NCBI GenBank assembly: GCA_026026165.1
Contig: JAPEUD010000032.1
Coordinates: 186,001-238,964 of the forward strand
Direction: 5' to 3'
Source: Sarea resinae
Lineage: Eukaryota
DNA length: 52,964 nt
Shown: piece by piece, positions 11,201 through 49,024 of the stretch
Layout of the letters: each line of letters opens with the position of its first letter
Position numbering within the stretch: position 1 is the first letter of the stretch
Notes under the pieces: generated by a model
Seen by the model: only the letters and a program-made list of their open reading frames with translations
Database searches by the model: none
Told to the model about the DNA's origin: nothing
Made by a program: the position numbers and the translations under genes

Positions 11201-12038
11201 AGGCAGCTGTTATAGGCAATTGAATTTTGGGAGCTTTAGAGAATATCTCCGAAGATGATAAGAGCTGTTTCAAGACGGAAGGTGGGCCGCTAATGGTAGC
11301 GGACGAATCTGACTGGGCGCTCAAGTAGGCATGCTTGTGAACAGGTATAGACTGAAGGCTTTTAGTAACCCATCACCGACTGACTCTTGGAAATACTCAC
11401 GTGAGCAATGTGAAAGTCATCAATGACACTCTGTTGTTTGCTCGGGATCAGATCTCCAATTGCGATTGCCCAGCTTTCAGAGCTTTGCTCAATGTCCGTC
11501 GAGCGGTGGCTTGTGTCAAGTGCCAAGCGTAGAGCGATACAAAGTATCTCCGGAGCAAGTTTCAACAGATCCGTGCCAGACTTTGCACTTGCAGCAGCAG
11601 CCGAGGGAAGTAAACCCGTGCAGAGACCTAGTATATAGACTTCCGAAGATGAGGACTCGAGTAAAGTCGGATCATTTTCCACCTGACTGTCAAGGAGTAT
11701 ACATTAGCTTCGGGCTCCGACGAGCAGGGAGAAGGATGAGAGATTTACTGAAGGAGAGAACCAAGCTGTGCTATGCAAAGCAAGACGGTAGAGACCACCA
11801 CGTCATTGATGCCGCTTTGCGAGTGTGCCTCGGCGAGACCTAGGATCGACTCGAAAGAGCAGAACCTTTCCCGGTCTGCAGCATATAGTTGAGCGACCTG
11901 AGCCTTCAAAACATGGGCTGTGTCCCGGAGAAAGATAGGCAACAACGAAGAGCTCTGTGATTGACGGCTCAAGAGCTTCAAAGTGGGAAGAGTCTCGACG
12001 GTCTGGTCGCCAAAGAAGAGGAGACGAGTCTGCTCCAT
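5275..12038 (-). CDS. Non-reducing iterative type I polyketide synthase, SAT-KS-AT-PT-ACP-ACP-TE (~2141 aa)
   Basis: Exons 12038-11749, 11686-11401, 11351-10737, 10685-9753, 9695-9486, 9438-5401 and 5328-5275 sum to 6426 nt in frame, and all introns are GT..AG. Motifs: SAT 'FFGDQT' and 'GLCTG'; KS 'DTACSSS', 'EMHGTGT' and 'GHGEAAAG'; AT 'GHSLGEY' and 'AFHS'; PT 'GHLVDG..LCPSS' and '[10 protein letters not shown]'; two ACPs 'LGVDSLL' and 'LGVDSLM'; TE 'GWSLGG' and 'GDHFSVM'. Confidence 0.95.
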
Positions 12039-15000: not shown

Positions 15001-15243
15001 AACACTCACATTACCTCACCTTACCTTGCATTGACTGTCGAGTTGTTTGCTATCAATTCATCTGTTTGAAGTGTCTACCACCTACTTTGTCTTGACACAC
15101 GCAACTTCCTTGTCCTTCTCTCACTTTACTTGCCAACCCTGAGCCTGACGTCTACCATCGCGCTGTCAATTGTCATACTTATCGGAACCACCTTTATCCT
15201 TTCTACACTCTTTTCCATCATCCTTGATGAGAAAATCGTTCCG

Positions 15244-18200
15244 ATGGACTCACCCTCTGCTTCTTCCTCTACTCTGATAGAGTCACTCGTCAACCATGTC
15301 GCCCTACCTCCTCGTCTACCTGGCAAACAGGACAACAGAATCGAGCAGATTGAGCAAGCACTGACAGCTCGCCTGCTGGATGCTAGCCGTATCTTGAGAG
15401 ACCTCACAGATGATAGCCACCGTGATCAGTGGGACCGCCTTCGCCGGATACTCGAGACCTGTAAGATCTTAAACGCCGGTGGCAAACTCAGCAAGAGCTC
15501 TCTTTTGAAGGAGTTGCAGAACCTGGAGCATAATGATTACCTCATCTTACACGTCTCCGAACAAAACGCCGGTCTCCTCATAAGACGGCAGAATGAGTGA
15601 GCATCATTTCCTGTATATGAGTGCACCTGACTGATAGATTGCTCCCCACTCAGTGAACAAGGCAAAAATGTCATTTTTGAGGCATTCGAGGCATCTCCAC
15701 GCTCCGAAAAAGTCCTTGGCTCCGGAAATACTTTACAATGGGGCTTTCCAGGATGCGCTGTTGCCATTTCATTTGCAGACTTCAGCGACCCATCTTTTCA
15801 GGACAACCTTGTCGACTTTCTTGACCAGGCGAGCTCTGAATCAATCAAGCGATTCGCGGCGCGCACGGACAAGGCGGGATCATCTGCATTCGAAAGTCGT
15901 GACACGGTTGAGCCTACGCTAATTACGCAGATACTAATGACACTACTGGAAGCAAATGGGCATCGTACCTTTCCTCCAATACTACGCAAGCGCATTCGAG
16001 ACGATGTTTGCTGGACCGATGGAGCAGAGAAGCCGTGGCGGAGATGCCCATACTGGCTAGTTCTACGTGTCGGACTTCAGAGACAGATACAGCTTGGCGG
16101 TGAAGCAGGCAGAGCACGCTACAAGTTTCTCATATGTCTTTTCATTGCTCGTCTGCTAGACGACGCGCTACACCTTCCTCCAGACTTGATAGTCTTCCTG
16201 AAAGCGAAACTCTGTCGCCGCCTCTCAAAGCTGGAAGTCGACCGAGACAGAGCGCCGCATCATGTTCGAACTGTTTACACACTTCTGTTCACAAAATTGG
16301 GGCCGATTTTCAACAAATCTACTGAAACCGCCATACAGAGTGTTGAAGCAGCCTGGACCAATCTGAAGAGAATGATTCGAAGGCCAGTCACCCTTCTTCC
16401 ACGTCGAGCTGATCAGCGGGATCTGTATCTGTCGCTCCCGAACAGTGGATTATATCTGGAGCGAGTCCTAGCAGAGCCTCTATTAGGAATCAGACACCCC
16501 GTCCCTTACCGACTGCCCGCAAGAAATGATATTTCAGCCCCAGCTAGAAGCAATCTCCGAGCTTTCGCCTCTCTGTACTTCTCACTCTTCGAACTGGAAA
16601 CAAAAATCAAGAGGAGTCATGCGGATATTTTTGTTTTTACCGAGCCCAATATCCAAAGCCAGTGCATAGAGCTGGCAAGAGGAATCGACACATACTTGAG
16701 TACAGTAGCAGGAGCTTATGATGCCAACCCGGAGCAGAAGAGTCTTATGCTGCTGACAGCTATGGAATCTTGGATGTTAATGGACCAACTTGCCACGAGA
16801 ATCTATAGTCTATTAACCAGATTCAACCCTGGCTTTCCACCCGAGATTTTGGACGTTCTGCAACTCTCATCTTTCCAAGATATGGTGCGTCTGCAGAAGA
16901 TTCAAAATTACCTTCGAGACCGTCATATCACAAGTCAACACTCAGGAATGACTGTCTTTGACGATCCCACCAAAGGATGCTTTGCAGAGCTGTCTTTCGA
17001 TAACCTTGAAGCGCTGCAGATACTCCATCAACGGATCGAGACCGCGGCCGAAGTGGCGCGCACTCAAAAAGAGAAAGAATGGCAAAAGCTGAGCCAGGAA
17101 TACGAGGACATGATCAAAACTGTCGCCGAGAGCACTTGTTTGTTCACAACCGATGAGAATTGGCCTTATGCCAAAGTTCATGATGACCGCCAGTGTACTA
17201 AGTGCTTCCTTGAGCGAAAATCTCGGCGCATCAAAATCCGAATCCACGAACATCCTCTGCCATCTAACCTGGTCCAGGCAAAAGCGGTGGTATTTGAATT
17301 GTATTGTCCAAAAGCCTTTTCAGCATATCGCGATGCCACTTGGAGGCTTCTAGGCACGTTGGCACGACCGAAGGGAATCAACTATTCTGAGCCGCGGGTG
17401 CTTCTCCAGGGATACTCCGAACTAAATGCATTCCGAAACTCAAATACTTTCAGCCTCTCCCTCGCATCTACGACCAAATCATTTCTCGACTCTCATTATG
17501 CAAACGTTCGATTTCCCGTCAGTTTGGAGGACGTTTGCCTACCCAATGGACTGAAGTATGGATACTTTGACAAGCTGACCAAAGTGTGGCCTGCACGGCA
17601 AACACAAAAGCCGACATTTGCGCATCATTGCCGCATGAACATCCCCAAGACCTCACCGTTTTCGTCCCTGGCGCCCTCACTCGACCTTGCCGTTGACGCG
17701 GATGGACCGTCTTCTTATGAAATCATCGCTAGTCAAACCAGATGCCCACCCGGACTGAACGTCCACGAGTTCATGGCTTACCAGGGTCTATTTTCGGGGA
17801 AGAATCGCCGATGGCCATCAATACTGATGGAATTAGGGTCATCAAACTTGAACTTCGGTACCGAAGCAACCGCTCTACTGATCTCCCAACTGGCATTACA
17901 AGTTGGTCCAGCGTGCGGAGCAGATCCTCTTCGCTCTGTGCACAGTATATTTCGGGACGTTCCGTTTTGTGAGAGATTGCTTGACCAGCTTGGCCGACGC
18001 CTAGATGCCATATCCTCTAACTGGCGAGAAACCAATTGTATGGAGTTGCTAGTCTCCCTGATGCTCAGGCTGTGTTCCCTTGCGCCCGAGTCTTCTATCG
18101 TCAACGCAGCTGGCCAGCTCCTGCATAAGACACGAATGATTACCTATAGATGGGTCAGCCTTTTACGGGCTGAGCTACAAGGCGCCACAGATGCTGAAAC

Positions 18201-21200
18201 CTCTCAGAAGTGCTCTAGGTACGCGTTTTGGGCGTCGTTACTTTGCAGGAGGACGTTTAGTCTTCATGTTCAGCTCGAGGAAACTCTGCAACCTACAGCT
18301 CTTCGTTGCTTCCTCGAATGTTCCATCACTCTACAGGATAATCTGGTCCGTGACCCCTCGTCGCTTCCAAATTTTCTAAGGAATGCGGTTGTTCGTGATA
18401 CCAAAATGGTTTACGACCTGCGTTTCTTACTCCGGCGATCTCTGGAGGCAAGTCCCGAGACTCTGATGACCGCAATCAACATTGTGTGGCCAGGGCCTGA
18501 AGGGAGTCAGTCAAGATCGTCTCTTGAATTGACATTTCTTCCTTGCCCAAATGAATGGTGGATCCAATCTATTGTTGACGAGACACAGCAAAATACACAG
18601 CAGATCTTACATTATCATCTGCTCCAGGGGACTTTGCTTGTCGACGGAAAGCCTTTAGGCAAGCTGCCAGCAGAGTATAGAACATCGGTGATTTTGACCG
18701 AGCTCTTTGGCGAGCAGAGCCTGCTTACATTCCCGTCCGGACACCGTGGTATGAGTTATACATTAGCCATCCGCATGTACGGGCATCAAATCCATCTTGG
18801 ATTTCGCAACGACAGACTTGTTATAAGGGCATGCGTGCGCGACAAGGTGCTGGAGCTTATCCCTCGCGAAGTATTCTTCAACACAACCACTTTTGACCTG
18901 CCAGCTTCACTCGTTGATGAGTGTGTTCACTGGCTTGACCTCAAGACCGGAATCATGGAGATTCGAAAGAAGTCAAATATATGGAAATCCGTCGCCAGTA
19001 ATTGGTTTGTCAATGTCCGCACTCGTCAAGCACATCGTCGCACGGTCTCCTTAATTGACACCCAGAGTCCTCTCTTCCAAAAGATTGCGCGCCTCTTTGA
19101 TCGATTTGAGTACCGACAATACTTGACTATATTCCAACCAGACAAGAGAAGTCTATCAGTCGAACTGCGCCGATTGGAACTTACGTTCACGGTGAATAGA
19201 AAGGGTCTTCTCGAATCCCCGCAATTACAATCAGAAGTTGATCCTAACCAAGATGCGGGAACCTGGTATGGCCTTAACAGTAAGCTCGTCCTGCGAGAGG
19301 TGGAAAATGCAAGCCGCCGCAGCATCATAGTGCCTCTAGGAAACGTCCTTTACAAGAGAAATAGCTTTCACGTGGAAACAGCGGTCACGAACGATGGCAG
19401 TTATGGCAGATTTATTATCAATGACACCCTAGGGAGACTCGAATGCGCCACCGAGCCACGTCTGCTTTACTTCAAAGCCCGGCTCCATGCATATACTTCT
19501 TTCGTTCTACCGGATCCTCTCACTGGGCGCACGGGAACCGAGGAGAGTTTGCATTGTCTACAATCAGGCTACTGCCAGCCGTGGGCACCATTGAATCCTG
19601 CTTTACATCAAAGCCTGATGGCAATCGCCAATCTCACCCCAAAGAGATATTATTATCCAGAAAATCTGAAGGTCATGCAAAAGGTCCTATGGGACAAAGA
19701 TCTAACAACTACAATACAGCATGATGGATATAGGTCGGCAATTGAAAACATTTATAAGAAGTCCGAGCAATTATCAATATTCGCTCTCCAAAAGGCCGAG
19801 CTTCCCTCACTACAGCCGGCCGGTGACCTACATTTGACTTGCCGCAATTATTCACGACACTGCTTGTACGAGCGACCAAATCCGAGTTTCGATCATCATC
19901 AAGAGTTCGGTCTAACTTATGATTCTCGAGACTGTTTCAAGGATAACCAGCTCTATAAGAACGTCCACGAAAGTACTCTCTTAATTCGTAATTGGTCGTC
20001 TCAACTATCAACTAGCTCTGATTTGGCTGGTATTCTTCAAAACTGGACAATAATTGGCGGCTATGATCGGTCTTTTGACAAAATTCTACTGAGCGATCGA
20101 CTCACTGTTCAGATTCCCCTTGAGTGGGGTTCACTAGTCAACCTTTGCCGTCAAGTAAAACCGAAGGACAAGTTTCGCCTCATGTTTCTATTTGCGGTTG
20201 TCTCAGCGAGCACGGATATTGACATGGTCATTGTAAGGACATTGATTGGCTTTGCCATCTTCGAGGATCTCAAGCCACTGATTCTCCCGAAGTGGCCATC
20301 TTATAAGCAATTTAAGATGAATCAGATTCCACATATTAATTATCTTCTTCAATTGATGAAGGCTTGCTGCCTCCCGTTTGCTGAAGAGTGGAACACTCTC
20401 GGACTCAACATCGGCCCGAAACAGCGCAGGAAGATTGAGATGGCCAAACTAGCGCATGAGGAGCAGACACAGAGTGATTGCAAAGAGCTTGCAAGATTTC
20501 TGTTGGAGCAATGGCCCTGCCAGGAACCAAAGATCGAAGGTTTCTCTAGGCCTGTGCTTTTGAATATTCAGCTGGCTTTGGACGTTATTCGTCCCGAATG
20601 GGAACGTTTGTTCTACAACATAGAGCTTTCACGACACATTCAGCAGGTGCAGCTCGTCTTGGATCGTCATTGTACAGAGATCAAGGAAGAGCCAGACATT
20701 TCTAAGATTCCAAGAAGCGAAGAGGAGCTTGCAGCCCGAATTCGCGGAGGAGAACTTGCGTCGCTTTCTCGGGACCTCTTAAGTAAGGCTTGCCCTGAAT
20801 TCGTCATCGAGTCCGAGATCAAGTTTGGTGACGATAAGATTCCAATTACGAGCCAGGGCTTCACCAGTCCTCTTGCTAAGCTTCCGAATGGACTCATGCC
20901 TCGTCGTTTGCACGAAAGCACGCCAAGGATGCCGGTCGAGGCTACGACTTCTTCAGCATATCCTGAGCTAGACGAACTCAAGAGTATCATACGCACCATG
21001 TCAGAGTCTCGTTCAACTGTCCGGCAGCAGTACGGGTGCGACCTCATGCAGAGCTTGACTGCGTTGGAGTCACTGAAGAGCAAACCAAAGGAAAATGTAA
21101 CTACAATTGATCGAGAAGCGTTATCGGCAGAAATCGCCAAGGCTCGAGAAATGCTTAGACTCCATTTTAATCAGCTTCGCCTGGCATTTGAACGGAATGA

Positions 21201-24200
21201 CTCTCGTGCTCAGTGGCTCCAGAAAGGGGGTTTATGGCCCTCGATAACGCCAATAACGCTGCTAGAGCAGTTGCGATCGACTTCAGACACCATTTATGGA
21301 GAGCGCATGAAGGAAAACTTGATATCATATGCGTTATCTATTACAACTCTTCAACGTCTTCTGAGAATCGAGAATGCCTATCAGAACAACAATGGACAGA
21401 AGTTGACCGATGAACACAAGAACGCTGGTCATAGCAATTGGCAGCCGCGGAAGCATCCTGACTGGCTTCTTTTGGAGATTGACGCGAACATGTTGATTCG
21501 ACCGGAACAAGTCGATGTTGCTCTTGCAACTATCGTTCCAGACTCCGGGTCAAACTCTGTGCTGCAGATGAATATGGGACAGGGTAAGGACACAATTTTC
21601 ATTTTGCAATACCTTTTGATTCCGGGAATACCCATTCAGATGCTTGGATAGCTGATATCAATTTGTGTAGGTAAAACATCTTGCATCATGCCAATGATTG
21701 CCGCAGTACTCGCCGACACGAAGCAGCTCTTGAGAGTAGTGGTCCCTAAGCCTCTGCTACTACAAACGGCGCAGACACTTCAGTCGCGCTGCGGCGGCCT
21801 TCTCGGAAGAGAAGTAAGACATGTCCCCTTTTCGCGGAAGACGGAGACCAAGCCAGATATTATCAAGGCGTATCACCTTATACATTACGAGATCCTCAAA
21901 AGCTCAAGTGTTCTGCTCAGCCTCCCAGAGAACATCCTATCCTTCAGATTGAGCGGACTTCAGAGGTTATCAGACGCCCGCATCACAGAAGCAAAGCAGA
22001 TGATTGCTCTCCAGGACTGGATTTCACAAAAGTGTCGTGATGTTCTTGACGAGTGCGATGTCACACTTGCGGTCCGAACGCAGTTGATATATCCATCCGG
22101 AGCACAAAAGACCGTGGACGGCCATCCTCATCGTTGGGAAATTGCTGAAGCTTTACTGGGATTAGTCGAAGGTCACTTGATCAATCTACAGCACGAATAT
22201 CCTCGAAGCATTGAAGTTGTCCGAAGGACGGGAGGCGGGTTCCCATTCATCTATTTTCTCCGCGGAGACGCCGAGGATGCTTTGGTAGGGCGGTTGGTGA
22301 CCGACATCTGCAGCGGTCGGGCTTCGATTATACCGACAAGAGACTTTGCGAAGTCTGACTGCCTTGTTATCAAGAAATTCATCTCTGATGCTAAGGTCGG
22401 ACAAGAGATAATTCGGAGGGTCAGCCAGCTTTTCTTTGATAAAGCTGCTGCGACTCAAGTTCTCTACTTGCTCCGAGGCTTACTGGTGCACCGCATTCTG
22501 CTTCTGAGCCTTAAAAAGCGATGGAACGTGCAGTATGGAGTACACCCGAGGCGTGATCCGATCGCTGTCCCTTTCCATGCAAAAGGAGTGCCTTCCGAAC
22601 AAGCCGAGTGGGGTCATCCCGATGTTGCCATTCTATTCACGTGTCTCGCCTTCTACTACGAAGGTCTCAATGTCGAACATTTACGTCAGAGCCTCGGGCA
22701 CATCCTGAAATCCGACGATCCATCTAGTGAGTATGATCGGTGGACACAGAACTCGGGAAGTTCAGGTCTTCCAGACTCCTTACGGGAATGGAACGCTATT
22801 AACGTCGACGATGAAGCCCAACTAAGAGAGATCTGGCAAAACGTTCGTTATAATGTCGTGGTCATTGACTACTTCTTGAATAACTTTGTTTTCCCAAAGC
22901 ATGCGAAGCAGTTCCAAATGAAGCTGCAGGCATCGGGGTGGGACATTCCACTCATTTCTCTGGATAACAAGACGCAGAGAAACCCAAAAGGCATCGACAG
23001 AGGCAGCTCAGCCAAAACTACCGGCTTCAGTGGAACCAATGACAACAGAAAAATGCTACCTCTCACTATCGCACAGGAGGATCTTGACGGGCTCTCGCAT
23101 ACCAACGCTGAAGTGTTGACCTATTTGCTACAGACTCGAAATCGACAATATGTACTAGCTGCAGATGCACGTGGGAGACGTCTGTCTGAGCAAGACCTAC
23201 TGAGAAGACTTTGCGACATGGGAATTCGAGTACTAATCGATGCTGGCGCTCAAATCCTGGAGATGGATAATCTAAGTCTGGCCAAAGCGTGGCTTGCTGT
23301 AGATACCGAAGCCCCTGCAGCGATTCTTTTTAACACAGACAACAAGGCCATGGTCTATTATCGGCACGGTCTCCAGATACCTCTATCTGCGTCTCCTTTT
23401 GCAGAGAATATGGTCGAATGTCTCATTTATCTAGACGAGGCCCACACTCGAGGTACAGATTTGAAGATGCCAGCGCTTGCCCGAGGGGCTTTGACACTAG
23501 GTCAAGGCCAGACGAAGGATCATACAGTGCAAGGTACGTAGGTTTCCTCGAGGAAGTTGATAAACCTAACATGCGAACAGCTGCAATGAGGCTGCGTCAT
23601 TTGGCTACATCACAATCTGTCTCTTTCTTCGCCCCTCCGGAGGTTCATCAAAGCATTCTTGACCTTTGCAATAAACAGATGGGCGATACTGTTGACTCGC
23701 ATGATGTCATATGTTGGCTTTTGGAGCAAACATGTAGCGGCAACGAACAACTTCAGCCTTTGTACTACTCCCAGGGTGTCGACTTTTGTCGTCGCACACA
23801 AGCCGCGTTCAACAGTCCAGACTTCCTCGCCAATGAGAATCAACGCCGCGCATATCTTGACTCTCTGAGGCAAAACGAACAACAAACTTTAGAGCAACTC
23901 TATAAACCTCAAGTCAAAACGGCATCCACCAAGAGCTCCGGCCCCATGTCCGCGGACATCGCGGCTTATATGAAGGAACTCGATAATCGGAGGAAAGGAT
24001 TCCAGGATACTGGTAATGCTGTTCAGGGTTCGGCTCTACAGGAAGTCGAACAAGAGAGAGAGGTTGCATATGAGGTGGAAGCTATACGTGAAGTGCAAAG
24101 ACCAATCCACTATACCGCTCTATCATTTCCAGGTCTTCACCGCGATGTTGCTAGCTTTGCGAAAACCGGAAGGCTTGCAGCAGATTCCGCGGGATACGAA

Positions 24201-25069
24201 CAAGCTTTTGTCGCTCTCAGCCGTATGTCCTTGGGCCAAAAACACGGCATCCACAGTGAAGCCACTGTCTCTCTGCTTTATGTATCCACGGAATTTACAA
24301 AGACTATTCGCCTGACGCTTGGACAACCTAATGACAACTTTCAAGTAAGTGACACGTCTGTAATGTCCTTCCGGTATCATCTAAATTTGGATTGTAGCGC
24401 AATGTCAACTGGATTCTGTGGAGCCCGTTGGCGGAAACAGCAGTCGTCATAATCCCAGAAGAGGCAGAACTTATAATTCCTCTTTTACGCGGAAACAAAA
24501 CGCCCACTACTCATCTATTAACATACTCTGCTCCAGTAACACGAAAAATGCTCCATTTCAACCGACTTGACTATTACGCAATGCCAAGCACGCCTGTAGG
24601 ATGGAGAGCTCCGACGTGGCTTACAATTGAGTTGGGCATCTTTGCCGGTCGTTTGTACTTTGAGTACTTTGAATACGACGACATGCGCAGATACCTTGGA
24701 CTGCACCCCGGGGATACTGCAACGGCGTCCCTCGAGCGAATCGAATCAGAAGAGAACGCTGAAAAGGGGGTGAAGGATACCGACACGAGAGCCGGACCAG
24801 TGCGAAGCTTCACGGACAAACCTTTGACGTTCTTACATGATTGGCTTACCATTCGAAGAAAGGGGCAAGACTTTCTGCATACGCCAATGGGATACATATG
24901 TCAAGGAAAATCGTTGATAGAGAGCCACCCATTCTTCACGAGGAGTTCAAGCAGCCATGCCAAGGGTGCCAAAGCTGTCGTGAAAGCAGGGAGTGATATG
25001 GACAGATTTTCTAGCGACGAAGATTTGCCCTTGGACGTGGCTGACGATGAGACCTACTTTACTGAGTGA
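15244..25069 (+). CDS. Giant DUF6606/DUF3638/DUF3645-family P-loop (SF2-like) protein, ~3193 aa
   Basis: Exons 15244-15596, 15654-21583, 21671-23533, 23581-24344 and 24398-25069 sum to 9582 nt in frame. Motifs: N-terminal 'NHVALPPRLP', 'FEAFEASP', 'KRIRDDVCW..PWRRCPYWL', 'HPDWLLLEID', Walker A 'MNMGQGKTS' (split by intron 2), 'DVLDECD', 'KRWNVQYG..AVPF.AKGVPS..AEWGHPDV', 'GFSGTND', 'LDEAHTRGTDL', 'QAAMRLR' and 'EVEQEREV'. Confidence 0.88.
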
Positions 25070-25860: not shown

Positions 25861-26533
25861 GTTTAGCCAGCTAAAGGGTCATTGCTACTGATGAGCTGAC
25901 GAGGATACTAGTCTAGGTCATGAAACATAAGTGAGAGGTCTAGCAAGGTGCGCTACCTTCTGGTAAGGTGAATAGATGCTGAACCATACAGAGGCTTCGT
26001 TCCAGTGCCTTCTGATAAGGCTCGCAGTCAGCACTCTGATTTCTCATCTTAGAGCCTCTGCATTATCTCCCGCCCAGACCGGTGACTTCTTACCACTCCA
26101 ACTTTGCCTCTTATCAATTCCTCCGCCTCAGGTCCCTCATTACCACGCAGCACTTCCTTTTCTTCGTACCGCCTCTTCCTCCCATTGCTACTCTCACCTT
26201 ATTCATCTCCGCAGTCTTACTTCAACCAAGGCCTCGGACTCTTCTTCGACCTGCCAAGAACAACTCATTGACTTCGGCCCGGCTCCTGCATTTTGATCGC
26301 CTTCTGGCCTTTTCCGGTGTTCGGTTGAAGACATGCATGAAGGCTACAGCCCACTTGGCTCGATTGTCTCTTCATCAGGTGTTTAATATCGAATGACACC
26401 TCACCTCACTCTGCGTAACATCACTTGCCCAGACTTAATCAAGGCCAGACCTCTCGCAGACTGAGTCTTCAATTTGAACAGCCATAACTGGCCGTTGTCG
26501 TTGTCAAGTAAGGCTAATTATTTCTCGTTGCAG

Positions 26534-28515
26534 GCTGGAGAGCCAATGCCGCTGTAGTGGTCCGCGAGCAGAATTCAATACGCCCACGGTACCTAGCCTC
26601 TCGAAATTTGGCACACGGAAGATTCAGGCCGCCGGTGATAGACCTGGAGGAGGGAGAAGTAATTCCTGAAAGCAACTATATTTCGGACGACAACACTTCT
26701 ACCAGGCGGTGGGAGAACGAAGTCAACCGAAGCGACAGCCAACCAGCCTTGCCGTTGCGGAACGGGCCTCTCCCTGAGGGATTCAAAGCTTTAGACTGTT
26801 TCTTCTCGGATGGACTCCAACTTGATGACACAAAAGTTGTTGAAATTGACAATGGAGATTTCCTGAGGATTATTCATATTCTGCAGAATCAATTGACAAC
26901 CGAGGTGTTTTTACAAGGCAGGATTTTTCGCCGTGCTGACGCTAAGGGGTTAAGGGGCCTGGATCTGAGGTTGAATGAGGTTGTACAGATTGCCGAAGTG
27001 GAACTTGATGATGGTAGAGCTGAGGACGATCAGAGCATCGAAGGAATCCCGCTTTCAAAAGTCTTGAGGCTACGACAATTGATTCTCACGAATCAACCTT
27101 ACCCGTCGTTTAGTGTGGCAGAGCAGCGATATCAGTACAGAAACGCCACGCACGCGGCCGCGGAGGGTCCACTCGTCTGTCGCTGGAAGTCCACTACGTA
27201 CTTTAAGAATAGAAAATTGCGAGAAAAGCGGAAGGTCGACGAAGAATCCTTACAAGTTCTTACTGAGGAACAATCATCCAAGCATTACGGTGTTGATGAC
27301 GCGACTCTCCGTGAAATTTGGCGCGGCGTGACTATAAGAGGAGGAGCTTGCGACGGCATCTCGCTTGAAGAAAAGCGATTCAATAAGGAGGAAAAGAGAG
27401 CAATAAGAAATTTATCAACTCTGCATAGCTCTGGTAGGTCACATCAACCACATCAACAGAGGAGCACGTCGGCAGATTTGCTTGCTGAGATTGACTATCT
27501 GACATTTGCGCGTTCATTGAATCCAACGCTAAAGCGTCGGTACACTTTCGGGGATTGCTTCTGTGGAGTGGGCGGAACATCTCGGGGCGCAAAGGATGCT
27601 GGCTATCGCGTCCAGTGGGGGTTTGACTTTGATGCAACTGCGATCAATGCGTATTGCCAGAACTTCTACGAAACCACGGGTTACGGCATGGCAGCTCATG
27701 ATTTTATCACTATCAAGGATGATGTCAAGGTTGATGTTCTGCACCTTGGCCCACCATACCAGACACTCTCTCCAGCACACACTATAGAAGGCAAGAACGA
27801 CGATATGAACAGTGCCAGCTTCTTGGCTTCTCGGGAGGCCATCCAGAAAACAAAGCCACGAATTGTTACCTTCGAGAACACTTCTGGGCTACCCGAACGC
27901 CACACGCTTTGGATGGAATCTTTGATTGATTGCTTTACGTCGCTAGAGTTTAGTTTGCGGTGGAAAGTGCTTCATTTCGACCAGTATGGCTTGCCTCAGA
28001 ATAGGAAGAGACTAGTACTCTTTGCTTCGTGGTAAGTTCACATTGTGCTTATCTCTAAATTCCTTTTTTTAAACTGAAGGTCTATGCGCAGCCCAGGAGA
28101 GCCTTTACCAGACTTTCCCCTACCAACCCACACAAGCAACCCGGAGTTCCAACACGAGCGAGGTCTGGCCCCGTGCACAACCGTCAACCAAGCGATCGCA
28201 CCTATCCCCGCCAACTTCCCTAACCACGAGCCCGATGAAGCAATGCTCCGCACGGCGCCTAGCTACGACGGGGACAACCTCTTGCCCTACACTATCACGA
28301 CCAGCGGAGGCGGCAATATCCATCCTTCTGGCGCGCGGGACTTGACGCATCGGGAGCTGGCTTGCCTCCAGGGCTTTCCCCTCGAACACAAGTTCGGACT
28401 CGTGTGTGTCAAGAAGCAGATCGGGAATGCGGTGCCGCCCAGTGTGGCTAAAGTGCTTCTGGAACATATCAAGAAGGCGCTGAGGAAGGCTGATGGGATA
28501 GAACTTGATAGATAG
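26534..28515 (+). CDS. rid: RID/Masc1-family C5 DNA cytosine methyltransferase-like protein with catalytic Cys replaced by Tyr; 5' exon(s) unresolved
   Basis: Motif I 'FGDCFCGVGGTSRGA', motif IV 'VDVLHLGPPYQTLSPAHT' (family consensus recalled as LHLSPPCQ.FSPAHT), VI 'FENTSGL', VIII 'YGLPQNRKRL', IX 'RDLTHRELACLQGFP' and X 'KKQIGNAVPP'. Intron 28032-28091 restores 'ASCPGEPLP'. An acceptor (gctaat...ttgcag) ends at 26533, so an upstream exon is expected but was not located. Confidence 0.88.
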
Positions 28516-33280: not shown

Positions 33281-36079
33281 CTACATACTGCTCAATGCTG
33301 CCTGTAAGATCCCCCAACGAGCCGAATCGTCTTCTCTAAAGTACTTCCACGGCGCAAGATAATAGCACCCAGGGTCACCTGTTGGTGTCGCCAAAGCCTT
33401 GAATATTGCACGCATGCCGCGTCGCGTCCGTAATTTCTCCCTCGCCAAGCGATATCCATGCTGGTCAGATCTCCAATCTAGGTCTCGTAGAATCATAGCC
33501 GCTATCCCTGCCGCGATTGGTGTTGCCACAGAAGTGCCTGACTTGCAAACCTCATCTTCGGAACTGCGTAATCCAGCAGACGGCACATCCTTTCCAAGGG
33601 TACCGAAAACAACGCCTTCATCTAGGTTTCGTGGGGGGTTGAAATCCGCAAAGACACCAGCACTATTGGTGCCGCGTATAGAGATGACAGAATCATGAAA
33701 GGCGGGAAACATCTCCTTCTCGTTTGCTCCATAGTTTGCCGCCGCGGCGAAAAAGAGGATAGCATCGTGTCTTTCATAAACCGCCCATCGTATAGCTTGG
33801 CTGATCGATGGCACTTCCATCGGAAAACCAAACGATAGTGAAATTATATCCACTTTCCATTCCTTAACCGCCCATTCGATAGCCTTCAACGGCCGTTAGT
33901 CCCTGCACACCCGGGGAATATGATTACTCACATCTGCTATTCTATCGGCGGCACCATGAAGACCTGCGGTGTCTTTTGCGACCCGCGCAACATATATATC
34001 TGCGGTAGGGGCTGTCTTCATGACAAGTGATACGACGTGTGTGCCGTGCCCATTGCAATCCTCTGGAGTTGGAGAATCGTCAACCCAGTCCTTCCATTCC
34101 TTTAAACGATTACTACGGCTCGGCGGATGGAAAAAGACAGCCTCGTCGTCGTAGCCGGTATCCAAGATAGCGACTCTAATAGGAGGCTGGCAGCTCTTCT
34201 GGGAACGGGCCAGACTAGCGTTGATTTTCGCAACATTTCGCAACCACTCGGCCGCTTTCTTGCTGTTGCATTCGTCAGCCAGAAACCACATAAAACTTCA
34301 GTAAATACCTTTCAAGGTTCACAAGTCTTTGATTCTGTGAGGAAAGATCAATAATCGACTGTGCTCGAGCCTGGGTATTGGCAGAGTCCTTTTCCATTTC
34401 CATCGGCCCAATTTTGGTAAGCTCATTCGACCATCCCGTCCCTGTGAGCAATTCTTCTAGTGGGTATACGACAGAACGATATAAAATTATCCTCCTCTCT
34501 TCTAAGCCATTCTGGTACTCCTCCTTCGACTGGCCGGGCAGAGAATCAGCGGAAGAAAAAACGTCTCGGTCCAAACAGGCTTTGACTGCTGTCCTATACC
34601 TTGAGTAATCAAAATTAGGCCATGGATTCTCTTCATCTGAGATTTTGCTGGCCATTGTCCAATCGCTATTGATGGTCCATTGCGGCGACTGGCGGTCTAT
34701 TTTTAGAGGATGTCCCAGGCCGATTTCAATGAGCATAATCCCTAATGCCAGAACTCTTGGATAGCGATGGATGATACCGTATGTGTGGCTACTTTCAGGA
34801 GCCTCTGAGCCTGCTTCGTCGAATCGTACGCAAAAGTAGGGTTTGTTTGCGTAAAGGGCGCTATCCTCGTCCAATCCAGGCACAGGCTCCTGCATAAAGT
34901 GGATGTTTTCGCCTGTCCACTTCGTTTTCATCCAATCAGAATCATAATACTGCCAGACTGATCTTGCCAAGGTGTACGCAAGAGCGACCTTCATTTTCGC
35001 TGTCAGATGGCGCGTCTCCAAGGCCGTAGTGAGCGAAACGCTTGGAGTATCCAAAATATTTTCTATTGGCTTGCAGGCCTCAAGTATCGTCAAGGTCTCG
35101 CCTTGAACTTTCATGCGGACTGTCGAACCAAGTCTGCCACTAATGAGACGGCAAAACTGGCCAGACCTTACCACTTCGCAGCCTTTTAAAGCGGAGCATG
35201 ACGGTCTCTGTTTATCGCTGAATCGAGCGGGAACGATGAGCTGTACGTCTTGCCATTGCACGACACGAGAGTTGGATGGCGGGGCAGGCGATGCAGAGAA
35301 TATCAAGTCGAATTGGACGGTGCCAATATATGGTGGATCCTGGCTTGCTCTCAAGCGCAACCTGGCCAGATGATGTTTAGTAGGAGCTCCCGAGGTCCCA
35401 CAGGTGCACGTCTGGTGATTTTGTAGGACAGTATAAGAGAGGTTGTTTATGTGATCAGGATAATCAAATGGTAATTCCACCGGCTTCTTTGTTGACGTCC
35501 ACGGTCCATCTGGGGTGCGTTTAAGCGTTCGCGACGCTTTCTGCTTTGAGAAATTTTGGATGAGGTCGATGAGTTGGTTTACCCGCGATGAGTGTTCCGA
35601 AGCAAAGGCTTCCAATCCACGTCGCACCGTCGATTCGGCTTCTCTGAACGAGGACGTCTCTCTGACTCCGGCAAGGGTGCGTAGCGCACGATACTGATCA
35701 TATCTATCATTCACTGGTCGTATTGCCCACTACAGAAGTCAGTCGAAGGGAATAAGAAAAAGCGAGGTGGGCAGATCCAAGCGAACGTTAGATCTAGGGA
35801 ATCTCTGGAACCGAATCTCAGCAGACGTACCGTGCAAACCATCTCGAGCTTTTTCAAAAGCTTTGGCATTCGACGTCGAAAGACTTCCTCCTGGTCGGGA
35901 GAGGTTGGACTGGCTAGTGTTTCATTCAAGCAGCACAGCTGAGCACCGAGGGCGGCGTAGAAACTGTTAACTTTCTCGACTCCGAGTCGCATTGCAATAT
36001 CGATGATCCTCGGAAACGCAACCTGCGCGAATTCCAATAGGTCCAACGAGTCCGCGTCTGAGTCCGAGTCCGAGTCCAT
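33281..36079 (-). CDS. Subtilisin-like S8 serine protease (HET-Q2-like) with a long N-terminal DUF7580-like region, ~867 aa, no signal peptide
   Basis: Exons 36079-35831, 35729-34309, 34262-33932 and 33883-33281 sum to 2604 nt in frame. The catalytic triad motifs are intact: 'VAILDTG', 'GHGTHV' and 'SGTSVATPIAAG', with oxyanion 'AAAANYG'. The N-terminal part has 'KVALAYTLARSVWQYYDSDW...W....IHF' and 'HRYPRVLALGIMLIEI'. The acidic N-terminus (MDSDSDSD) is not secretory. Confidence 0.9.
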
Positions 36080-36330: not shown

Positions 36331-39300
36331 ATGCCACGACCTCCTTTGATCTCCGATACAGTTTCGGCTTGTCGCGAGAGTTTCCACGAGTGCCTGACCG
36401 CCCCCAGTCTCTTCGACCGCGAATGGGCAGAGAATCGGCTTGCCGATCTCAACCTCTGGGCGGCCGGCCTAGGGGTTTTTGCCAGAAAAGATGCCTCTCT
36501 TGATCAACGATTGGCTCTGAAACCCGGGATCCGAGATGTTGTGATTAATCTCTTGTACATCTTGAAAGCATTCGTCGATCAATGCAGACAAAGCGGTGAG
36601 AAAGCGTACTTCACACAGCCGTTAGTCCAGCGTTTGACAGAACATCTTAGGATCCGAAGCCATAGAAAACCTTTCAATCGAAGACTCTGATCTACGAGGG
36701 AGAACGCCTTCCATCACTCTTTCACCTGGGCCACCCACACAACGATCCTTCTCGCCGTGGTCCGATGAATCAAGCTCTGATTCGACTACCGAACGTGAAT
36801 CTTCTTCTCCACCATCGGCTCTTGCCGAAGCTGTCAAAGGCACCGAAACCATCTTGGATCAGCTTGCCAGATTAGCAGTTGCCATTCGCCAATCTGGTGC
36901 CCATGCTCGCCTGCAAAAGGCGGACAAGACTTACAATCCTGATCACCACACAACCCTTCGTGATCATCTTACTTCTATCATACTTTCTCGGTCTTTTCGA
37001 TGGGGGACTACGGAGTTTGTTGCCAAATTCGAGGAGCTGAGCGAAATCCAGAAACGTCTTGTTGATGCCAATCTGAAACGCCGAAATCGATTCATATACG
37101 CACAGAAACACGCAAGGAAGCTTGCAGTAGCTCCGCCGGTACCGGTCCAAGCGATCGAAAAGCCAAAGCCCAAGGACCTTGGATTGCCCAGCAAGGCACA
37201 GGAGCCAAAGGAAACAATACCAACAAGGCCTCCAAATGCAGACCGAACGGTCCAGAAACCCCGATTCCTCACCCCAAATATGGCGGCGATGACCAACACC
37301 ACTGCGTCTGTTGTTGAAGGCTCTATCGCTGTGCCGCGAGCGACGGCACCTTCGCAGCCGGCAAGAACCGCGATAACTTCAACGGGCTCTAATATCGCCT
37401 ACCCTCATCCTCCACGGATAAAGCAAGGCCTGAACACTTTCAAGTGCCCATGCTGTTGCCAGATTCTCCCTGCCATGTTCGCTCAGAGTAGCCGATGGAA
37501 GTAAGTGCTCCCATCTTGATTTGAGTCAAGCACTTATTTCGAAACAGAAAGCACCTTGCAGGAGATATCTCCCCGTACACCTGCATCCTACCCAACTGTG
37601 CAAACCCGGAAGTTGTTTATGTCACCCGCGAGTCTTGGACCAAACACATGAGCAATGAGCACAGAACTTCTCGATCTTGGAAGTGTCTAGCGTGTAGTGA
37701 CGCTGTGTACTTTGACGACGAGGATCAATTTGTGGCTCATACGAAAGCGGAACACCGGGATACCATTTCAGATGAGCAGATCCTCTTTCTGACATCTGTA
37801 TCCTCGCAAACGACTTCTCTCGAAGTCAAATCCTGTCCACTTTGCAGCTGGGGAGATGAACAAGTTGTTAATACGGGCTTTCTACTCGACCATGTTGCTG
37901 AACATGTGCACTCCTTTTCTCTCCGATCCCTGCCCTGGGCACCCAAGGAGGAAAGTGAAGACAAACAGAATATCGAAAAATCTGTCAGAAAGGTAAGGGC
38001 GTGGTTTTCTAAATGGCCGACTTCAGCAGATGGAGACGAACATCGGCCAGTACACACGAAACAAAAACACCCGGAGGACGTTGACGATTATTTTGAAGGG
38101 AGCGATTACTTTGCCGAAAGCTCGGGGCTCTCAAGCCGTGGGAAGTCAACGATCTCTTCAGAGGAGCGGGATCTCACAGGATTTCCTGGAGAAGGATCGT
38201 TGGATTTTGAAGAGGAAGGATATTCACCGGAAAAGGAAACAAATAAACCTGACCACGAAAATACCAAGTATTCCTTTGAAGTAGCGCTTCAAATGGATAC
38301 CCATAGGTCATTATCAAGCGGATGGAACGTTTCCGAGCGGCAGAATGCGATCTATAATGAAACCCTTTGGAGACTGAACGAGACAGAAGGGTCGTGGTTT
38401 CTTTCCCATCCTATGTTTAAACGTTGGAAGGAGGATAGATTTTTTCTATGGCTCTATAGTGATGCTGGATGTGGCACATTAGCTTCCGTCATTATCGAGA
38501 ACTTGCTACAGAGTCGCGTAGCAGATTTGACTGGGTCTATCGCGGTCACCTTTTTCTACTGCAATCCTGAGAAAAACGACTTTCTTTGGGTCGAGGATAT
38601 GGTTTTCTCCCTGATCACCCAGCTCGCGATGCAATGCGAAGTGGTCCCTACGGCCCTCAGGCTTCTGTTTCAATCTTGCAGAGACAAAGATCGAGCGCCT
38701 ACAGACGAGGAAACAATGGACACTTTTAGGCAGATGGTCGATGAGCGCGATGCAACAACGTTTGTCATTCTTGATGGACTAGAAGAGTACAAGGAAAGAG
38801 CTGCACTCTTGAAAGCCATGGAGAAATATTGGCAGAACGGATTGATCCATGTACTGGTAACAAGTACGCATTCCGTGCAACTTAATATGGATGATCACAT
38901 TTGGGGCGAGCTCGAAATCAGAGAAGATGATCAAAACGAAAACCTCCGATTCTATATACGCAGGGTATTAGAATCTGATGTGCGATTGAAAGGTTGGACA
39001 ACTTCGGAGATTCGAGAACAGATTGAGAACAAACTTATCTATCAATCGAACGGAGTGTAAGACTATTTCCGTACCTCCGCTTTGATAAGCATTAATGAAA
39101 TACTAGATACCCGTGGATTTCCCGTCAGCTAAAGCTTCTTGGAGAGACGCATGACATTGAGGTAATATATCAGACGGTGACAGCTCCCTTGACAGTAAGC
39201 CAAATATACGGGCAAATTCTGCTTGAAATTCCTGAACCAAAAATCGATCTTGCACGATCATACTTCGAATGGCTCCTCCTATCTGCACGACCACTGGCAG

Positions 39301-41297
39301 TCAACGAACTTCTTGCTGGAACCGATCCAGGAACGTTATCCCAGGATGGCAGCGCTCGGTACTACAAACAAACTCGAGAAGAAGTTCTAGCCATATGTCC
39401 GAGCCTTATTAGCATATACTCTGGGTTGCGCTTGGGCCGAAGAGATTTAGAAAGTGTCGAATTCGTCAAGACACCAGTGATAAACTCGGACAGCTTATCT
39501 CATGGCGATATAGAGCAGAAGGTTCCGCATTCCGAAAGCACGTCTAAAAGGCTCGGCGGACCTATATTACAGCCTACGTTGAAGGAATTCCTGACCCAAG
39601 AATCGTTCCTAGTTCCTAATTTCCACTTAATTGAAATCGCTGCACATGAGCGCATAGTACGAAAATGTCTCGAGTACCTGTTACAGATTGGCCGGTCTAA
39701 CGGATGGGATTCCCATACCTTGAGGCTATATCCCCTCACAGGGTATGCAGCACAATACTGGGCCTTTCACGCTCAGAGAATGCCGATTTACAGCGACGTG
39801 AATGAGCTGATCATGAAACTATTCTCTAATCAACCGGCCTTTTTGACATGGCTACGGCTTTTCGGCCCAGATAACCCCAGCCGATACCCCGATGAGGAAG
39901 ACAGCAAAATCGATGCTGCAACTCCGTTGTATTATGCGTCGTTGATCGGTCTACTTGAGCCGGTCCGCCTTTTGCTCGAGCAAGGTGCAGATTCGAATGC
40001 GATTGGGGGGGAATGCAATACCGCACTTGGTGCAGCTGCTCATAACGGTCACCATGAGATAGTTAAGCTGCTGCTAGAGTCCGGCGCTGAAGTTGATATC
40101 CGAGGAAACTCTGGTACCGCCTTGTATATGGCTGCGTGCGCGGGGCATGATAAAGTGGTTTCCTTACTCTTGATGCATGGTGCTGACCTCAATGCCTGCA
40201 AGGGGGATCAAGGCACTGCTCTACGAGGAGCAGCGAAACATGGCCATGAGACCACCGTGCGACTCCTGTTGGACGCGGGCGCGGAGGTGAATAATCAAGA
40301 CGAAAGTACCGCTTTGCACGCTGCGGCATCCAGTGGCCATGAGACAATTTGCCGGCTGTTGCTCGAAGCAGGTGCTGAGGTCAATTGTCGAACGGAAAAA
40401 CATGGTACCGCATTACAAGCGGCAGCATGGGAGGGCCACGAATCGATTGTGCGGGTACTTCTAGATTATGGAGCTCTAAGCAACGCCCCACCTGAAGAGT
40501 CCGACACCGCATTGCCAGCCGCGGCTCTCACTGGCTGTGAATCGATTGTGCGCCTACTTTTGGAGAACGGAGCTGAAGTGAACGCTCTCAAGGGAATCGC
40601 ATTGACGGCTGCGGCGAGCGCAGGTCATGAATCAATAGTGCGCCTACTTTTGGATCGCGGAGCTGATGTTGATGCCCGGATAGTCGGAACCATGACCGCA
40701 TTGCAGGCTGCGTCTGTCAATGGCTATGAATCAATCGTGCGCCTACTTTTGGAGAAAGGAGCTGATGTGAACGCTTTTATGGGAACCGCATTAATAGCTG
40801 CGGCATCTAATGACCAATTGGTACTGCAACTACTCAGAGATCTAGGGGCTGATCCCGACACAGTACGCTACTTGATAGAAAGAGGAGGTCTTAAGACAGA
40901 TATAGATGCCGACACGGCGTTACAGATGGCAGCTAAGGAGGGCCACGATGGGATAGTCCAGCAACTCCTTGATCACGGAGCCGACATCAACGCTCCAGGA
41001 AGTCATGGGACTGCCTTGTACTTGGCGTCGAGCAGGGGATATACGTCAACGGTGCGACTGCTATTAGAACAAGGGGCTGATGTTAATAGCTCTGGAAACG
41101 AGCACGGAACTGCCTTGTACGCTGCAGCTTCTAACGGCCACGAGAGCATTCTTAAGATCTTACTAGAACACGGAGCTACTGTAGACAACTCCGGGTTCAA
41201 ACTTGAAACTGCACTACACATTGCGGTTTCTAAAGGCTATGAAGAAATAGTTCAAATCCTACGAGATCGTAGGTCAAATACAAATACTATTTCTTAG
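36331..41297 (+). CDS. NLR-like protein: helical N-terminal domain + C2H2-type Zn fingers + degenerate NACHT-like P-loop + winged helix + ~14 ankyrin repeats (~1604 aa)
   Basis: Exons 36331-36595, 36651-37500, 37548-39056 and 39107-41297 sum to 4815 nt in frame. Motifs: 'NRLADLNLWAAGLG...SLDQRL', 'FKCPCC', 'WKKHL..DI.PYTC...C', 'WTKHM..EH', 'C..C...F..H...EH', 'CPLC..DHVAEH'; NACHT-like 'GSWFL...FKRW..LWLYSDAGCGTLAS', 'FFYC', 'FVILDGLEE'; 'EWLLLSARPL..NEL'; 'YAAQYW..H'; ankyrins from about 39921. Confidence 0.88.
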
Positions 41298-41440
41298 TGT
41301 ACATTAGAGGGCTAAAGAAGGTAGGAAGAGGTTAGGTTAAGGTGAATTAGGAGGGTGCAGTAGGAGGATCGATAGATAGATAGGTACTAGCTAAGACTAT
41401 ATAGAAAGCAGTTGCCCTAAGAGGCATCGCGAGGAGAATG

Positions 41441-41562
41441 CCCCTAAGGGTATAAGTCTAAGCAGCAACAAGGATGCCTCTAAGGGCATAAGTCTAAGCA
41501 GTAACAAGGATGCCTCTAAAGGCATAAGTCTAAGCAGCGACAAGGATACCTCTAAGGGCATA
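41441..41562. repeat. 36-bp tandem repeat, about 3.4 copies (CCTCTAAGGGCATAAGTCTAAGCAGCAACAAGGATG)
   Basis: Units start at 41441, 41477 and 41513, with a partial unit at 41549. Differences between copies are C/T or G/A transitions. Confidence 0.85.
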
Positions 41563-42199
41563 ACACTAGGTAAGTAATTAAAACTGCTAAAGGCATAATT
41601 GATTTAAGGTCTAAAGTTATTGTCTCTAACAAACTATAAAGCCTAAAAAGAAGAAGGAAAGCAACAATATTTGTTTAATCTTAATATTTAGTTAACAAAG
41701 TACTAATTCACAAAACAGTTAGATACAACAATTATAAGAATAAAAAAAAGCCCCTTTAATTAAATTAAATTACAATAGAGATTAAATACTTAAGATCTAC
41801 CTGTTTAAATACTATCTAACTACTTGTATTAATACTTTATAATATCTTACTAGCTAGTACAAACAGTCTATAAGAAGCAAAAAGTATTATAATAATAGTA
41901 GCAATTATTATAGCAATAGTTAGTAGTAGTGTTAGTCTAACTATAGAGGTAAAAGATAGAAAGTAGGTTAGTAAGTTAGTAAGTAAAGTTAGGTAAGTAG
42001 GTAGGTAAGTAGGTAAGGCTTTATAGAGTAGTAGGTAACTTATTAGTAGAGTTATATAAGTGATTTAATTTGCGTTACCTCTATCTAGTAACTTGCTATA
42101 CTAATCTATCTCTACTAACTATATTATATATCTTTAGTGATTTACTATCACTTTCTTCTTAACTAATAAATTAGGAAAATTGTCTTAATATAGATTAGT

Positions 42200-48100: not shown

Positions 48101-48250
48101 TAAAGCTACACAGCTACAATACTATAGTTATAAGAGGAGATAAAGTTATAGAAAAGAAAAGTGAAATTAACCCCTAGCGCTATTCTAGCGCATAACCTAC
48201 ACAATCTAGTATATAAACAGAAATAAAAAGACTACTATTCTATTACCTAA
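42200..48250 (+). mobile_element. RIP-degenerated Ty3/Gypsy (chromovirus) LTR retrotransposon relic; boundaries approximate
   Basis: The block is extremely TpA-rich and full of stops, with de-RIP-able motifs in canonical order: Gag (about 42800-43100), Zn knuckle C-x2-C-x4-H-x4-C (43665-43709), protease LID(S)G (about 43872), RT YLD(D>N) (44865-44876), RNase H VETDAS (45321), integrase ITMDFVTGLP (46602) / VSDRG / TDGQTER, and chromodomain 'YLVKWKG..SWEP' (about 47493-47640). A possible 3' LTR starts at TGTAAG about 47897. No matching 5' LTR was recognised. Confidence 0.9.
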
Positions 48251-48383
48251 CTACTTTGTCCTACCTGACTCTAAGGGCTCTAATTAGCCTAACCGCATTG
48301 CAGCGGCTAAAGACACTGTCTTCTCGTCGATTTTCGCCGATCTTCGCCTCTTTAAGGCATCGAAGCGAGCCCTAAGCGAGAAT

Positions 48384-48411
48384 CGACGGTGTTTTCGCGA
48401 CGGTGTTTTCG
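48384..48411. repeat. 14-bp direct tandem duplication (CGACGGTGTTTTCG)2
   Basis: Two exact copies at 48384-48397 and 48398-48411, upstream of the helicase element ORF. Confidence 0.9.
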
Positions 48412-48711
48412 CGCCTGTCAAAAAGCGCCCTCTGCCTACCGACCTAACCACCTTGATAGCTGCCTCAATCCTCGCCCGCGCGCCCGCCCTCTGTTCGTTC
48501 GATCGCTAGCCTGCCAGCGTCGATTTCCCACCCTTAGGGTTGCCCTGTCCCTTGGGGTTACTTAGGGTTCGAGGTATATCGAGAGGTGATTGCAGCCAGC
48601 TAAGGCAGACTAACAGCGCACTTTGCCTCTAGCGCCCGCGCAGCGCTCTAAGGAAAGGAGAAGGCTTGCTTGCGTCTGATCTACTAGCCGCCGTTTAAAG
48701 ATTTTAAAAAA

Positions 48712-48730
48712 CTTCTAGACAGTCTAGAAG
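48712..48730. repeat. Perfect 19-bp palindrome CTTCTAGAC-A-GTCTAGAAG (copy 1)
   Basis: The 9-bp arms are exact reverse complements. An identical copy lies at 50788-50806. Confidence 0.9.
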
Positions 48731-48956: not shown

Positions 48957-49024
48957 AAGAACAAGAGCAACAAGAGCAGCAAGAGGAGCAAGAGGAGCAA
49001 GAGGAGCAAGAGGAGCAGCAAGAG
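48957..49024 (+). repeat. CAAGAG(G/C)A(G/A) 9-bp-unit low-complexity repeat encoding QEQ/QEE
   Basis: caagaacaagagcaacaagagcagcaagaggagcaagaggagcaagaggagcaagaggagcagcaagag. Confidence 0.8.

Follow-up and report, generated by a model that had tools for sequence, protein, structure and literature searches.

The fungal DNA methyltransferases of the Masc1/RID group are reported to be defined by two traits: their motif VI triad is EQT or EET instead of ENV, and their target recognition domain (TRD) between motifs VIII and IX is remarkably short, spanning about 80 amino acids in PaRid of Podospora anserina (PMC6709928). In the same account, a PaRid protein carrying the change C403S was expressed and complemented 0/89 and 0/55 transformants (PMC6709928). 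Multiple losses of Rid1 are described in fungi, 48% of species having homologues, and Neurospora is described as possessing a second, Dim2/Dim5-dependent route to repeat-induced point mutation (RIP) (PMC12543289). Here we describe a gene of this group in a stretch of 52,964 nucleotides (contig JAPEUD010000032.1, positions 186,001 to 238,964 of the forward strand; hereafter the window, within which all positions are counted), in whose predicted product a tyrosine takes the place of the catalytic cysteine of motif IV. At a probability of about 0.5, we read it as a RID/Masc1/DmtA-type gene with a genuine catalytic-null Cys>Tyr allele, which would have arisen by a fairly recent spontaneous transition unconnected with RIP.

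The motif IV loop of this gene reads ctg cac ctt ggc cca cca tac cag aca ctc tct, that is, LHLGPPYQTLS. Its Tyr409 codon, TAC at 27757-27759, differs from the cysteine codon TGC by a single G>A transition, just as the first-pass annotation of this DNA had stated. In HMMER comparisons with the sequences of the PDB, Tyr409 lies opposite the catalytic cysteine of GFPCQAFS in M.HhaI, which acts as the nucleophile. Homologues were gathered in two steps: 112 came from a search of 5.8 billion proteins, and the best 150 matches of a HMMER search against 1.84 billion representative proteins contributed 135 new sequences, for a total of 247. Cysteine occupies the Tyr409 column in 112/112 sequences of the first MAFFT alignment and in 247/247 of the enlarged one; as the alignments stand, tyrosine at the motif IV nucleophile is unique among all 247 homologues examined. 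The sister sequence, from Sarea resinae, carries the standard motif IV LSPPCQIFS. Two further residues of the loop, not mentioned in the first-pass annotation, are at odds with the family. Position -3, Gly406 (ggc, 27748-27750), is serine in 246/247 homologues, and position +3, Leu412 (ctc, 27766-27768), is aromatic (F, W, Y or H) in all 247. All three family-unique residues fall inside 7 residues of motif IV.

The TGC>TAC substitution is real and genomic. A 1944-nt contig of sequencing run X1, produced by an independent assembler (Logan) at a word depth of 338, is identical to the window over 26500-28172, with 0 differences and 0 gaps. This run contains 0.99 of the sampled words and is possibly the same sample as, or the very source of, the assembly. 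No alternative contig for the region is listed in it, though contigs cannot reveal minority alleles, and X2 and X3, two further runs of that study, yielded no match to the stretch. Agreement between two assemblers at this depth makes a sequencing or assembler error unlikely.

By descent the gene fits the RID/Masc1/DmtA group, judging from its motifs and domain content, while lacking the catalytic cysteine. The RID/Masc1-type identity proposed in the first-pass annotation is supported by three features: the ExT form of motif VI, the shortness of the TRD and a domain content limited to PF00145. This domain follows a conserved N-terminal region of about 330 amino acids, and the Pfam scan, which covered the two exons downstream of any first mini-exon, detected none of the BAH, RFTS, chromo and SNF2 accessory domains. 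Such domains set Dim-2, Dnmt1 and Dnmt5 apart from the RID group. Consistent with this, the nearest Atlas clusters (0.96-0.97) are composed of ascomycete proteins with PF00145 only, as against 0.81-0.84 for the BAH-bearing Dnmt1/Dim-2-like clusters. The C5 motifs I, IV, VI, VIII, IX and X were all located in canonical order, and HMMER matches both M.HhaI and M.HaeIII. The motif VI triad is ENT, with the threonine of the group at the third position and asparagine at the second. Across the 247 homologues the triad is EQT in 118, EET in 77, ENT in 46, EEV in 2, EQV in 1, EEA in 1 and a gap in 2; ENT is a common variant of this set, yet it is not among the triads named in the passages of PMC6709928 that define the group. 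The TRD between QNRKR and RELACLQGFP measures 93 residues.

A quick IQ-TREE phylogeny of 45 rows (the present protein with 28 named and 16 unnamed homologues chosen from the 247) follows the ascomycete classes and places the protein as sister to that of Sarea resinae with a Shimodaira-Hasegawa-like approximate likelihood ratio (SH-aLRT) of 99; no named RID, Masc1 or DmtA sequence stood among the rows. The terminal branches of the two sisters measure 0.58 and 0.35, respectively, against a median of 0.5. The cluster names available for six homologues are only generic, and no RID, Masc1 or DmtA label occurs among the homologues. Identity to the Sarea resinae protein is 42% by BLASTP and 54% over 590 tree columns, and neither the search of 5.8 billion proteins nor the best 150 of the 1.84 billion representatives yielded a closer relative. 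A scan of JGI metagenome contigs for close relatives gave 122 pattern matches, 0 of which were confirmed by tblastn.

The GPPY of the loop recalls another class of enzymes. N6-adenine and N4-cytosine methyltransferases have a structurally equivalent loop with the motif IV (D/N/S)PP(Y/F/W). We rejected such an identity, as GPPY does not conform to this pattern and both PF00145 and the PDB matches denote C5 enzymes. An ancestral SPPC with a C>Y change would give SPPY, which accounts for the resemblance, but the first residue of the present loop is Gly in place of D, N or S, and the other motifs are all of the C5 type. The likeness is probably a coincidence.

Outside motif IV, the protein is well preserved. 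Over the first 499 residues it keeps 39 of the 41 columns that are at least 95% invariant, the departures being Ser406>Gly and Cys409>Tyr; the same test with the 247 sequences gives 37/39. In the C-terminal exon it keeps 14/14 of the columns conserved at 90% or more. Overall, 53 of 55 strongly conserved columns are retained, and both departures lie in motif IV. The statement in the first-pass annotation that the remaining methyltransferase motifs and the open reading frame (ORF) are intact thus holds, in that motifs I, VI, VIII, IX and X are present and the frame is unbroken once an intron of 60 nt is removed. Relative-rate tests compared the protein with its cysteine-bearing sister from Sarea resinae against ten outgroups. 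Over the full length, p fell below 0.05 with 1/10 outgroups; most of these tests show no significant acceleration relative to Sarea. At 153 columns conserved among the outgroups, private departures number 16 in our protein (one being the unresolved first residue) and 10 in Sarea (p=0.33), and in the methyltransferase half the corresponding counts are 9 and 3 (p=0.15). Under a simple neutral model, in which stops make up 3.7% of random substitutions, an intact 1920-nt ORF is to be expected with a probability of at least 0.05 as long as neutral substitutions do not exceed about 0.013-0.042 per site (at indel:substitution ratios of 0.1 and 0). Therefore, the gene as a whole has not been drifting for long.

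These observations suggest the following course of events. With motif I, the glutamate of motif VI, the arginines of motif VIII and motifs IX and X intact, the protein should still fold, and it is predicted to retain binding of S-adenosylmethionine (SAM) and probably of DNA. Without the thiol, the covalent C6 adduct required for C5 methylation could not form, and the deamination proposed for RIP would fail likewise. On sequence grounds, the RID methyltransferase of the tyrosine-bearing fungus is probably chemically dead and, by analogy with PaRid C403S, should be null for any function requiring catalysis. The cysteine of this gene, which serves genome defence specifically in the sexual phase, would have been lost fairly recently by a spontaneous transition, recency being most likely because the remaining ORF is unbroken and conserved. 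The allele might then show us, at an early stage, the kind of RID loss that ascomycetes have undergone repeatedly. A RIP-degraded gypsy element in the same window would either be older than the Cys>Tyr change or have been made by a route independent of RID. That a genome with RIP scars should encode a dead RID is plausible, because a Dim2/Dim5-dependent route exists and Rid1 has often been lost.

Four points weigh against this interpretation. First, the Ser>Gly and aromatic>Leu changes share the 7-residue loop with the tyrosine, and a very recent single hit is not expected to produce such clustering; the cluster suggests instead an older relaxation specific to the loop with the rest under selection, or changes that were tolerated earlier. 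Second, the allele rests on one sample, possibly the assembly's own source. Third, a cysteine-bearing paralogue may exist elsewhere in the genome. Fourth, the start codon of the gene is placed only tentatively (see below). As regards the first point, the two flanking changes may predate the loss of the cysteine and be harmless, since glycine at -3 is normal in the active M.HhaI and leucine at +3 is found in DNMT3A.

The older relaxation just mentioned leads to the best surviving alternative, which we regard as possible though rather unlikely: that the cysteine was lost long ago and the protein was kept for a non-catalytic role, such as binding of SAM or DNA, scaffolding or partnership with another methyltransferase, so that only its catalytic loop has been drifting. 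This would liken it to DNMT3L and plant DRM3. The confinement of the family-unique residues to motif IV, with the other conserved columns kept, agrees with such a history, the chance being about 0.013 that 2 random changes among the 39 near-invariant columns would both hit the 5 loop columns. The absence of overall acceleration relative to Sarea agrees with it too, as does the intact ORF, which speaks against long neutrality of the whole gene. However, the cysteine is reported to be needed for the developmental role of RID in Podospora (PMC6709928), and the concentration of changes is less telling if the glycine and the leucine came before the tyrosine and did no harm.

The remaining alternatives fare worse. 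One of them makes RID a victim of RIP itself: the G>A change would be RIP damage, either through leakage from the nearby repeat or through a transient duplication of the gene. There is strong RIP in the window, as the first-pass annotation had observed: a Ty3/gypsy retrotransposon lies in a block with a GC content of 30-36%, a TpA/ApT ratio of 1.8-2.3, a (CpA+TpG)/(ApC+GpT) ratio of 0.36-0.69 and a composite index of 1.15-1.97. Its domains share one frame with 59 stops in 965 codons (41 TAG, 18 TAA and 0 TGA), and the element is damaged by point changes without frameshifts. Neither a repeat search nor a sensitive blastn of both ends found a pair of long terminal repeats. The description of the gene as "next to" destroyed transposons needs amending, as the RIP-like block lies downstream at a distance of about 12.5 kb from the methyltransferase stop codon and is not adjacent to it. 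Relative to the rest of the window, the densities of trinucleotides in the block are 0.01x for CCA, 0.08x for TCA, 0.01x for CCG, 0.08x for TCG, 0.11x for ACG, 0.66x for GCA and 0.89x for ACA, these being approximate ratios that compare densities rather than ancestral states. The RIP-like process at 41400-48200 shows a strong preference for a pyrimidine before the target C, with CpA and CpG both hit and with GCA and ACA largely spared; this context rule is unlike the plain CpA preference usually quoted.

The change in the gene is of the right kind, since a G>A at TpG (CpA on the other strand) falls in the canonical RIP dinucleotide, and a RIPed element is at hand. Yet opposite the mutated G stands a C in the GCA context, the class that is relatively spared by the local process (here the earlier annotation was right), while three RIP-preferred CCA sites within 8 nt of it are unmutated. 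The gene is likewise free of other RIP damage, as had been noted: its indices are normal (0.71, 1.24 and a composite of -0.53), and its preferred sites are as dense as in the background (17.65 versus 16.72 per kb for CCA, 18.15 versus 18.49 for TCA). The glycine and leucine codons, if derived from AGC and TTC, changed by A>G and T>C, opposite to the direction of RIP. The distance to the repeat also tells against leakage, and searching the window with the gene by blastn and tblastn revealed no second copy, although a second X1 contig of equal depth has about 165 nt of diverged similarity to 27121-27284. The reading of the transition as a RIP-type mutation is consequently disfavoured, and we consider a self-inflicted origin highly improbable. 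This second contig (3069 nt, depth 342) aligns with 27121-27153 at 2 mismatches and with 27248-27284 at 4. A stretch of 94 letters in the window corresponds to 37 in the contig, whose AT-rich flanks do not resemble the window. It could stem from the N-terminal region of the gene, as a diverged fragment or a paralogous piece located elsewhere in the source.

Equally improbable in our judgement is that the tyrosine codon is an assembly or sequencing error, or belongs to one genotype of a mixed thallus whose functional population has TGC. The sequence does occur in a single run, possibly the source, and rare variants drop out of contigs; but the agreement of the second assembler at high depth, with no alternative contig listed, speaks against such an origin, and an adapter remnant suggests short accurate reads.

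The least credible proposal invokes A-to-I editing of the mRNA in the sexual stage, which would recode UAC to UGC (Tyr to Cys). The tyrosine codon would then be a switch instead of a lesion, with a dead RID in the vegetative thallus and an active one confined to sexual or ascogenous tissue. If true, this would amount to an enzyme of genome defence being restored by missense editing, in a class of fungi for which no mRNA editing is reported. Fungal editing sites are described as preferring U at -1, A or G at +1 and +3, and an adenosine within a hairpin loop (PMC11156358). What is required is precisely an A>G change of the middle base, the U at -1 (the main fungal preference) and the A at +3 of the tyrosine codon fit, RID acts in the sexual phase, and restorative editing of pseudogenes is established in Fusarium sexual development (PMC10776026; PMC11156358), but we give the proposal almost no credence, given that +1 is C, that the site is outside any predicted hairpin loop in a local fold weaker than that of shuffled sequences (z=+1.58), and that genome-wide editing is reported only from Sordariomycetes and Pyronema, A. 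nidulans and B. cinerea having yielded none (PMC11156358). A retained pseudoenzyme is both a less bold explanation than such a switch and a likelier one.

The features on which this account draws are collected in Table 1. The main exon proper starts at 26534, after an acceptor AG at 26532-26533, 26533 being the first base of the codon as translated. Residues 8-705 of the Sarea resinae protein P0001 map onto 26539-28509 by tblastn. The product spliced at the intron reads LVLFASCPGEPLP, with the counterpart IVIASCPGEALP in Sarea resinae and likewise in several lichen fungi. The position of the intron is supported because homologues continue with ASCPGE across the junction; unspliced database models stop with ASW at the same point. 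The 5' end is less clear. No in-frame ATG occurs in the large exon ahead of motif I (26518-27687 inspected), a lack that the first-pass annotation does not mention; an out-of-frame ATG at 26546 opens an ORF of 3 codons, and the starts of homologues fall within about 6-25 codons of the 5' end of this exon. One candidate first mini-exon would be joined to it by a 155-nt intron with the donor GTGTTT at 26379, a branch-like CTAAT at 26514-26518 and the acceptor named above. An alternative candidate, at 26393-26414, has its ATG at 26393 and the donor GTAACA at 26415, and uses the same acceptor. Both donors are weak. The start must either come from a mini-exon with a weak donor or have been lost, and in the latter case the lost start codon would possibly be a second lesion in the gene.

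Table 1. Positions in the window of the parts of the methyltransferase gene and of the RIP-degraded retrotransposon
Feature	Position	Strand	Evidence or remarks
Candidate first mini-exon with ATG, MHEGYSPLGSIVSSS + 1 nt	26333-26378	+	Proposed from the sequence
Main exon: conserved N-terminal region and methyltransferase motifs I-VIII	26533-28031	+	ORF list, Pfam (PF00145 at residues 338-498, E=2.8e-24), tblastn
Motif I, SAM-binding, FGDCFCGVGG region, YTFGDCFCGVGG	27541-27576	+	Every near-invariant column kept
Motif IV catalytic loop LHLGPPYQTLS	27739-27771	+	Homologue alignments, HMMER against PDB
Motif VI FENTSG, E-N-T triad	27871-27888	+	Homologue alignment; Glu kept
Motif VIII QNRKR	27997-28011	+	Both Arg kept (Arg in 100% and 99% of homologues)
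Intron, 60 nt, GTAAGT...GCGCAG, phase 2 (TG|C, giving Cys500)	28032-28091	+	Sequence and homology
Last exon: short TRD, motifs IX and X, stop TAG at 28513-28515	28092-28515	+	PF00145, E=3.8e-10
Motif IX RELACLQGFP	28351-28380	+	Within last exon
Motif X GNAVPP	28423-28440	+	Within last exon
RIP-degraded Ty3/gypsy retrotransposon (approximate limits)	41300-48300	+	GC, RIP indices, Pfam
RVT_1 of gypsy element	44541-45020	+	Pfam, X-read-through translation
RNase H of gypsy element	45228-45641	+	Pfam, X-read-through translation
Integrase Zn-binding domain, weak	46368-46532	+	E=6.2e-4; 20.3 bits, below the Pfam cut-off of 25.5 bits
Tf2-1 SH3 of gypsy element	47256-47435	+	Pfam, X-read-through translation

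Several other genes share the window. An intron-split non-reducing polyketide synthase on the reverse strand (5278-11372) combines SAT, KS, AT, PS-DH (product template), two ACP and thioesterase domains, a layout typical of lichen-type aromatic polyketide synthesis, and an OrsD-like ORF lies at 48839-49369 (+). Directly upstream of the methyltransferase is a very large gene of about 10 kb (15070-25066, +) with DUF6606, DUF3638 and DUF3645. A subtilase (Peptidase_S8) in two ORF pieces at 33284-35729 on the reverse strand comes after a DUF7580 ORF on the same strand. A gene resembling NOD-like receptors (37525-41294, +), with an NPHP3_N NTPase domain followed by many ankyrin repeats, adjoins the RIPed retrotransposon with its 3' end, with an abrupt shift of composition at about 41.3 kb. 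A 36-nt tandem repeat (41435-41568) of 3 overlapping 62-nt copies that are 87-100% identical lies at the edge of the RIPed block, and a 114-nt tandem duplication (45868-46095) of 75% identity lies inside the gypsy element. The terminal part of the window, 48001-52964, is GC-rich (49-60%) and has an unusually high TpA/ApT ratio (1.1-1.9, against 0.4-0.8 in the remaining non-RIP parts of the window) without depletion of CpA/TpG.

To our knowledge, neither methylation nor deamination of DNA by RID has been demonstrated in vitro, and a natural, conserved RID without its nucleophile in a strongly RIP-scarred genome would provide a ready-made test of its role in RIP and sexual development. If RIP is still active in this fungus, then the catalysis of RID would be dispensable or another pathway of the Dim-2 type would be responsible. 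If RIP is inactive, the allele would be the first step of RID loss, caught ahead of the decay of the gene. In practice, surveys based on the presence of RID would wrongly score such genomes as competent for RIP. In the open-access literature, as judged by titles and abstracts and with subscription journals outside the search, we found no published RID lacking the cysteine.

The place of this locus among the described systems can be summarized as follows. RID of Neurospora crassa, Masc1 of Ascobolus immersus, DmtA of Aspergillus nidulans and PaRid likewise have a single PF00145 preceded by an N-terminal extension, an ExT motif VI and a short TRD, and the present protein differs from them in having tyrosine for the invariant cysteine, glycine for serine and leucine for the aromatic residue of motif IV. 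It differs from the group as delineated in PMC6709928 also in its ENT triad, which it has in common with 46/247 homologues. PaRid C403S offers a parallel, in that a RID-like protein there lost the same class of residue from its PCQ triad; however, that allele was made in the laboratory, carries serine and is reported to be null for fertility (PMC6709928), whereas ours is natural, carries tyrosine and is predicted to be null. The dim2 gene of Zymoseptoria tritici represents another natural loss of a defence-linked fungal DNA methyltransferase, described as having occurred by amplification followed by RIP (PMC8016269). It belongs to the Dim2 family and bears many RIP mutations, whereas here one missense change stands in a poor RIP context in a gene without a RIP signature. 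Finally, the recurrent loss of the whole Rid1 gene (PMC12543289) would have the same predicted outcome, the absence of RID catalysis, though in the present case the gene is still in place and intact.

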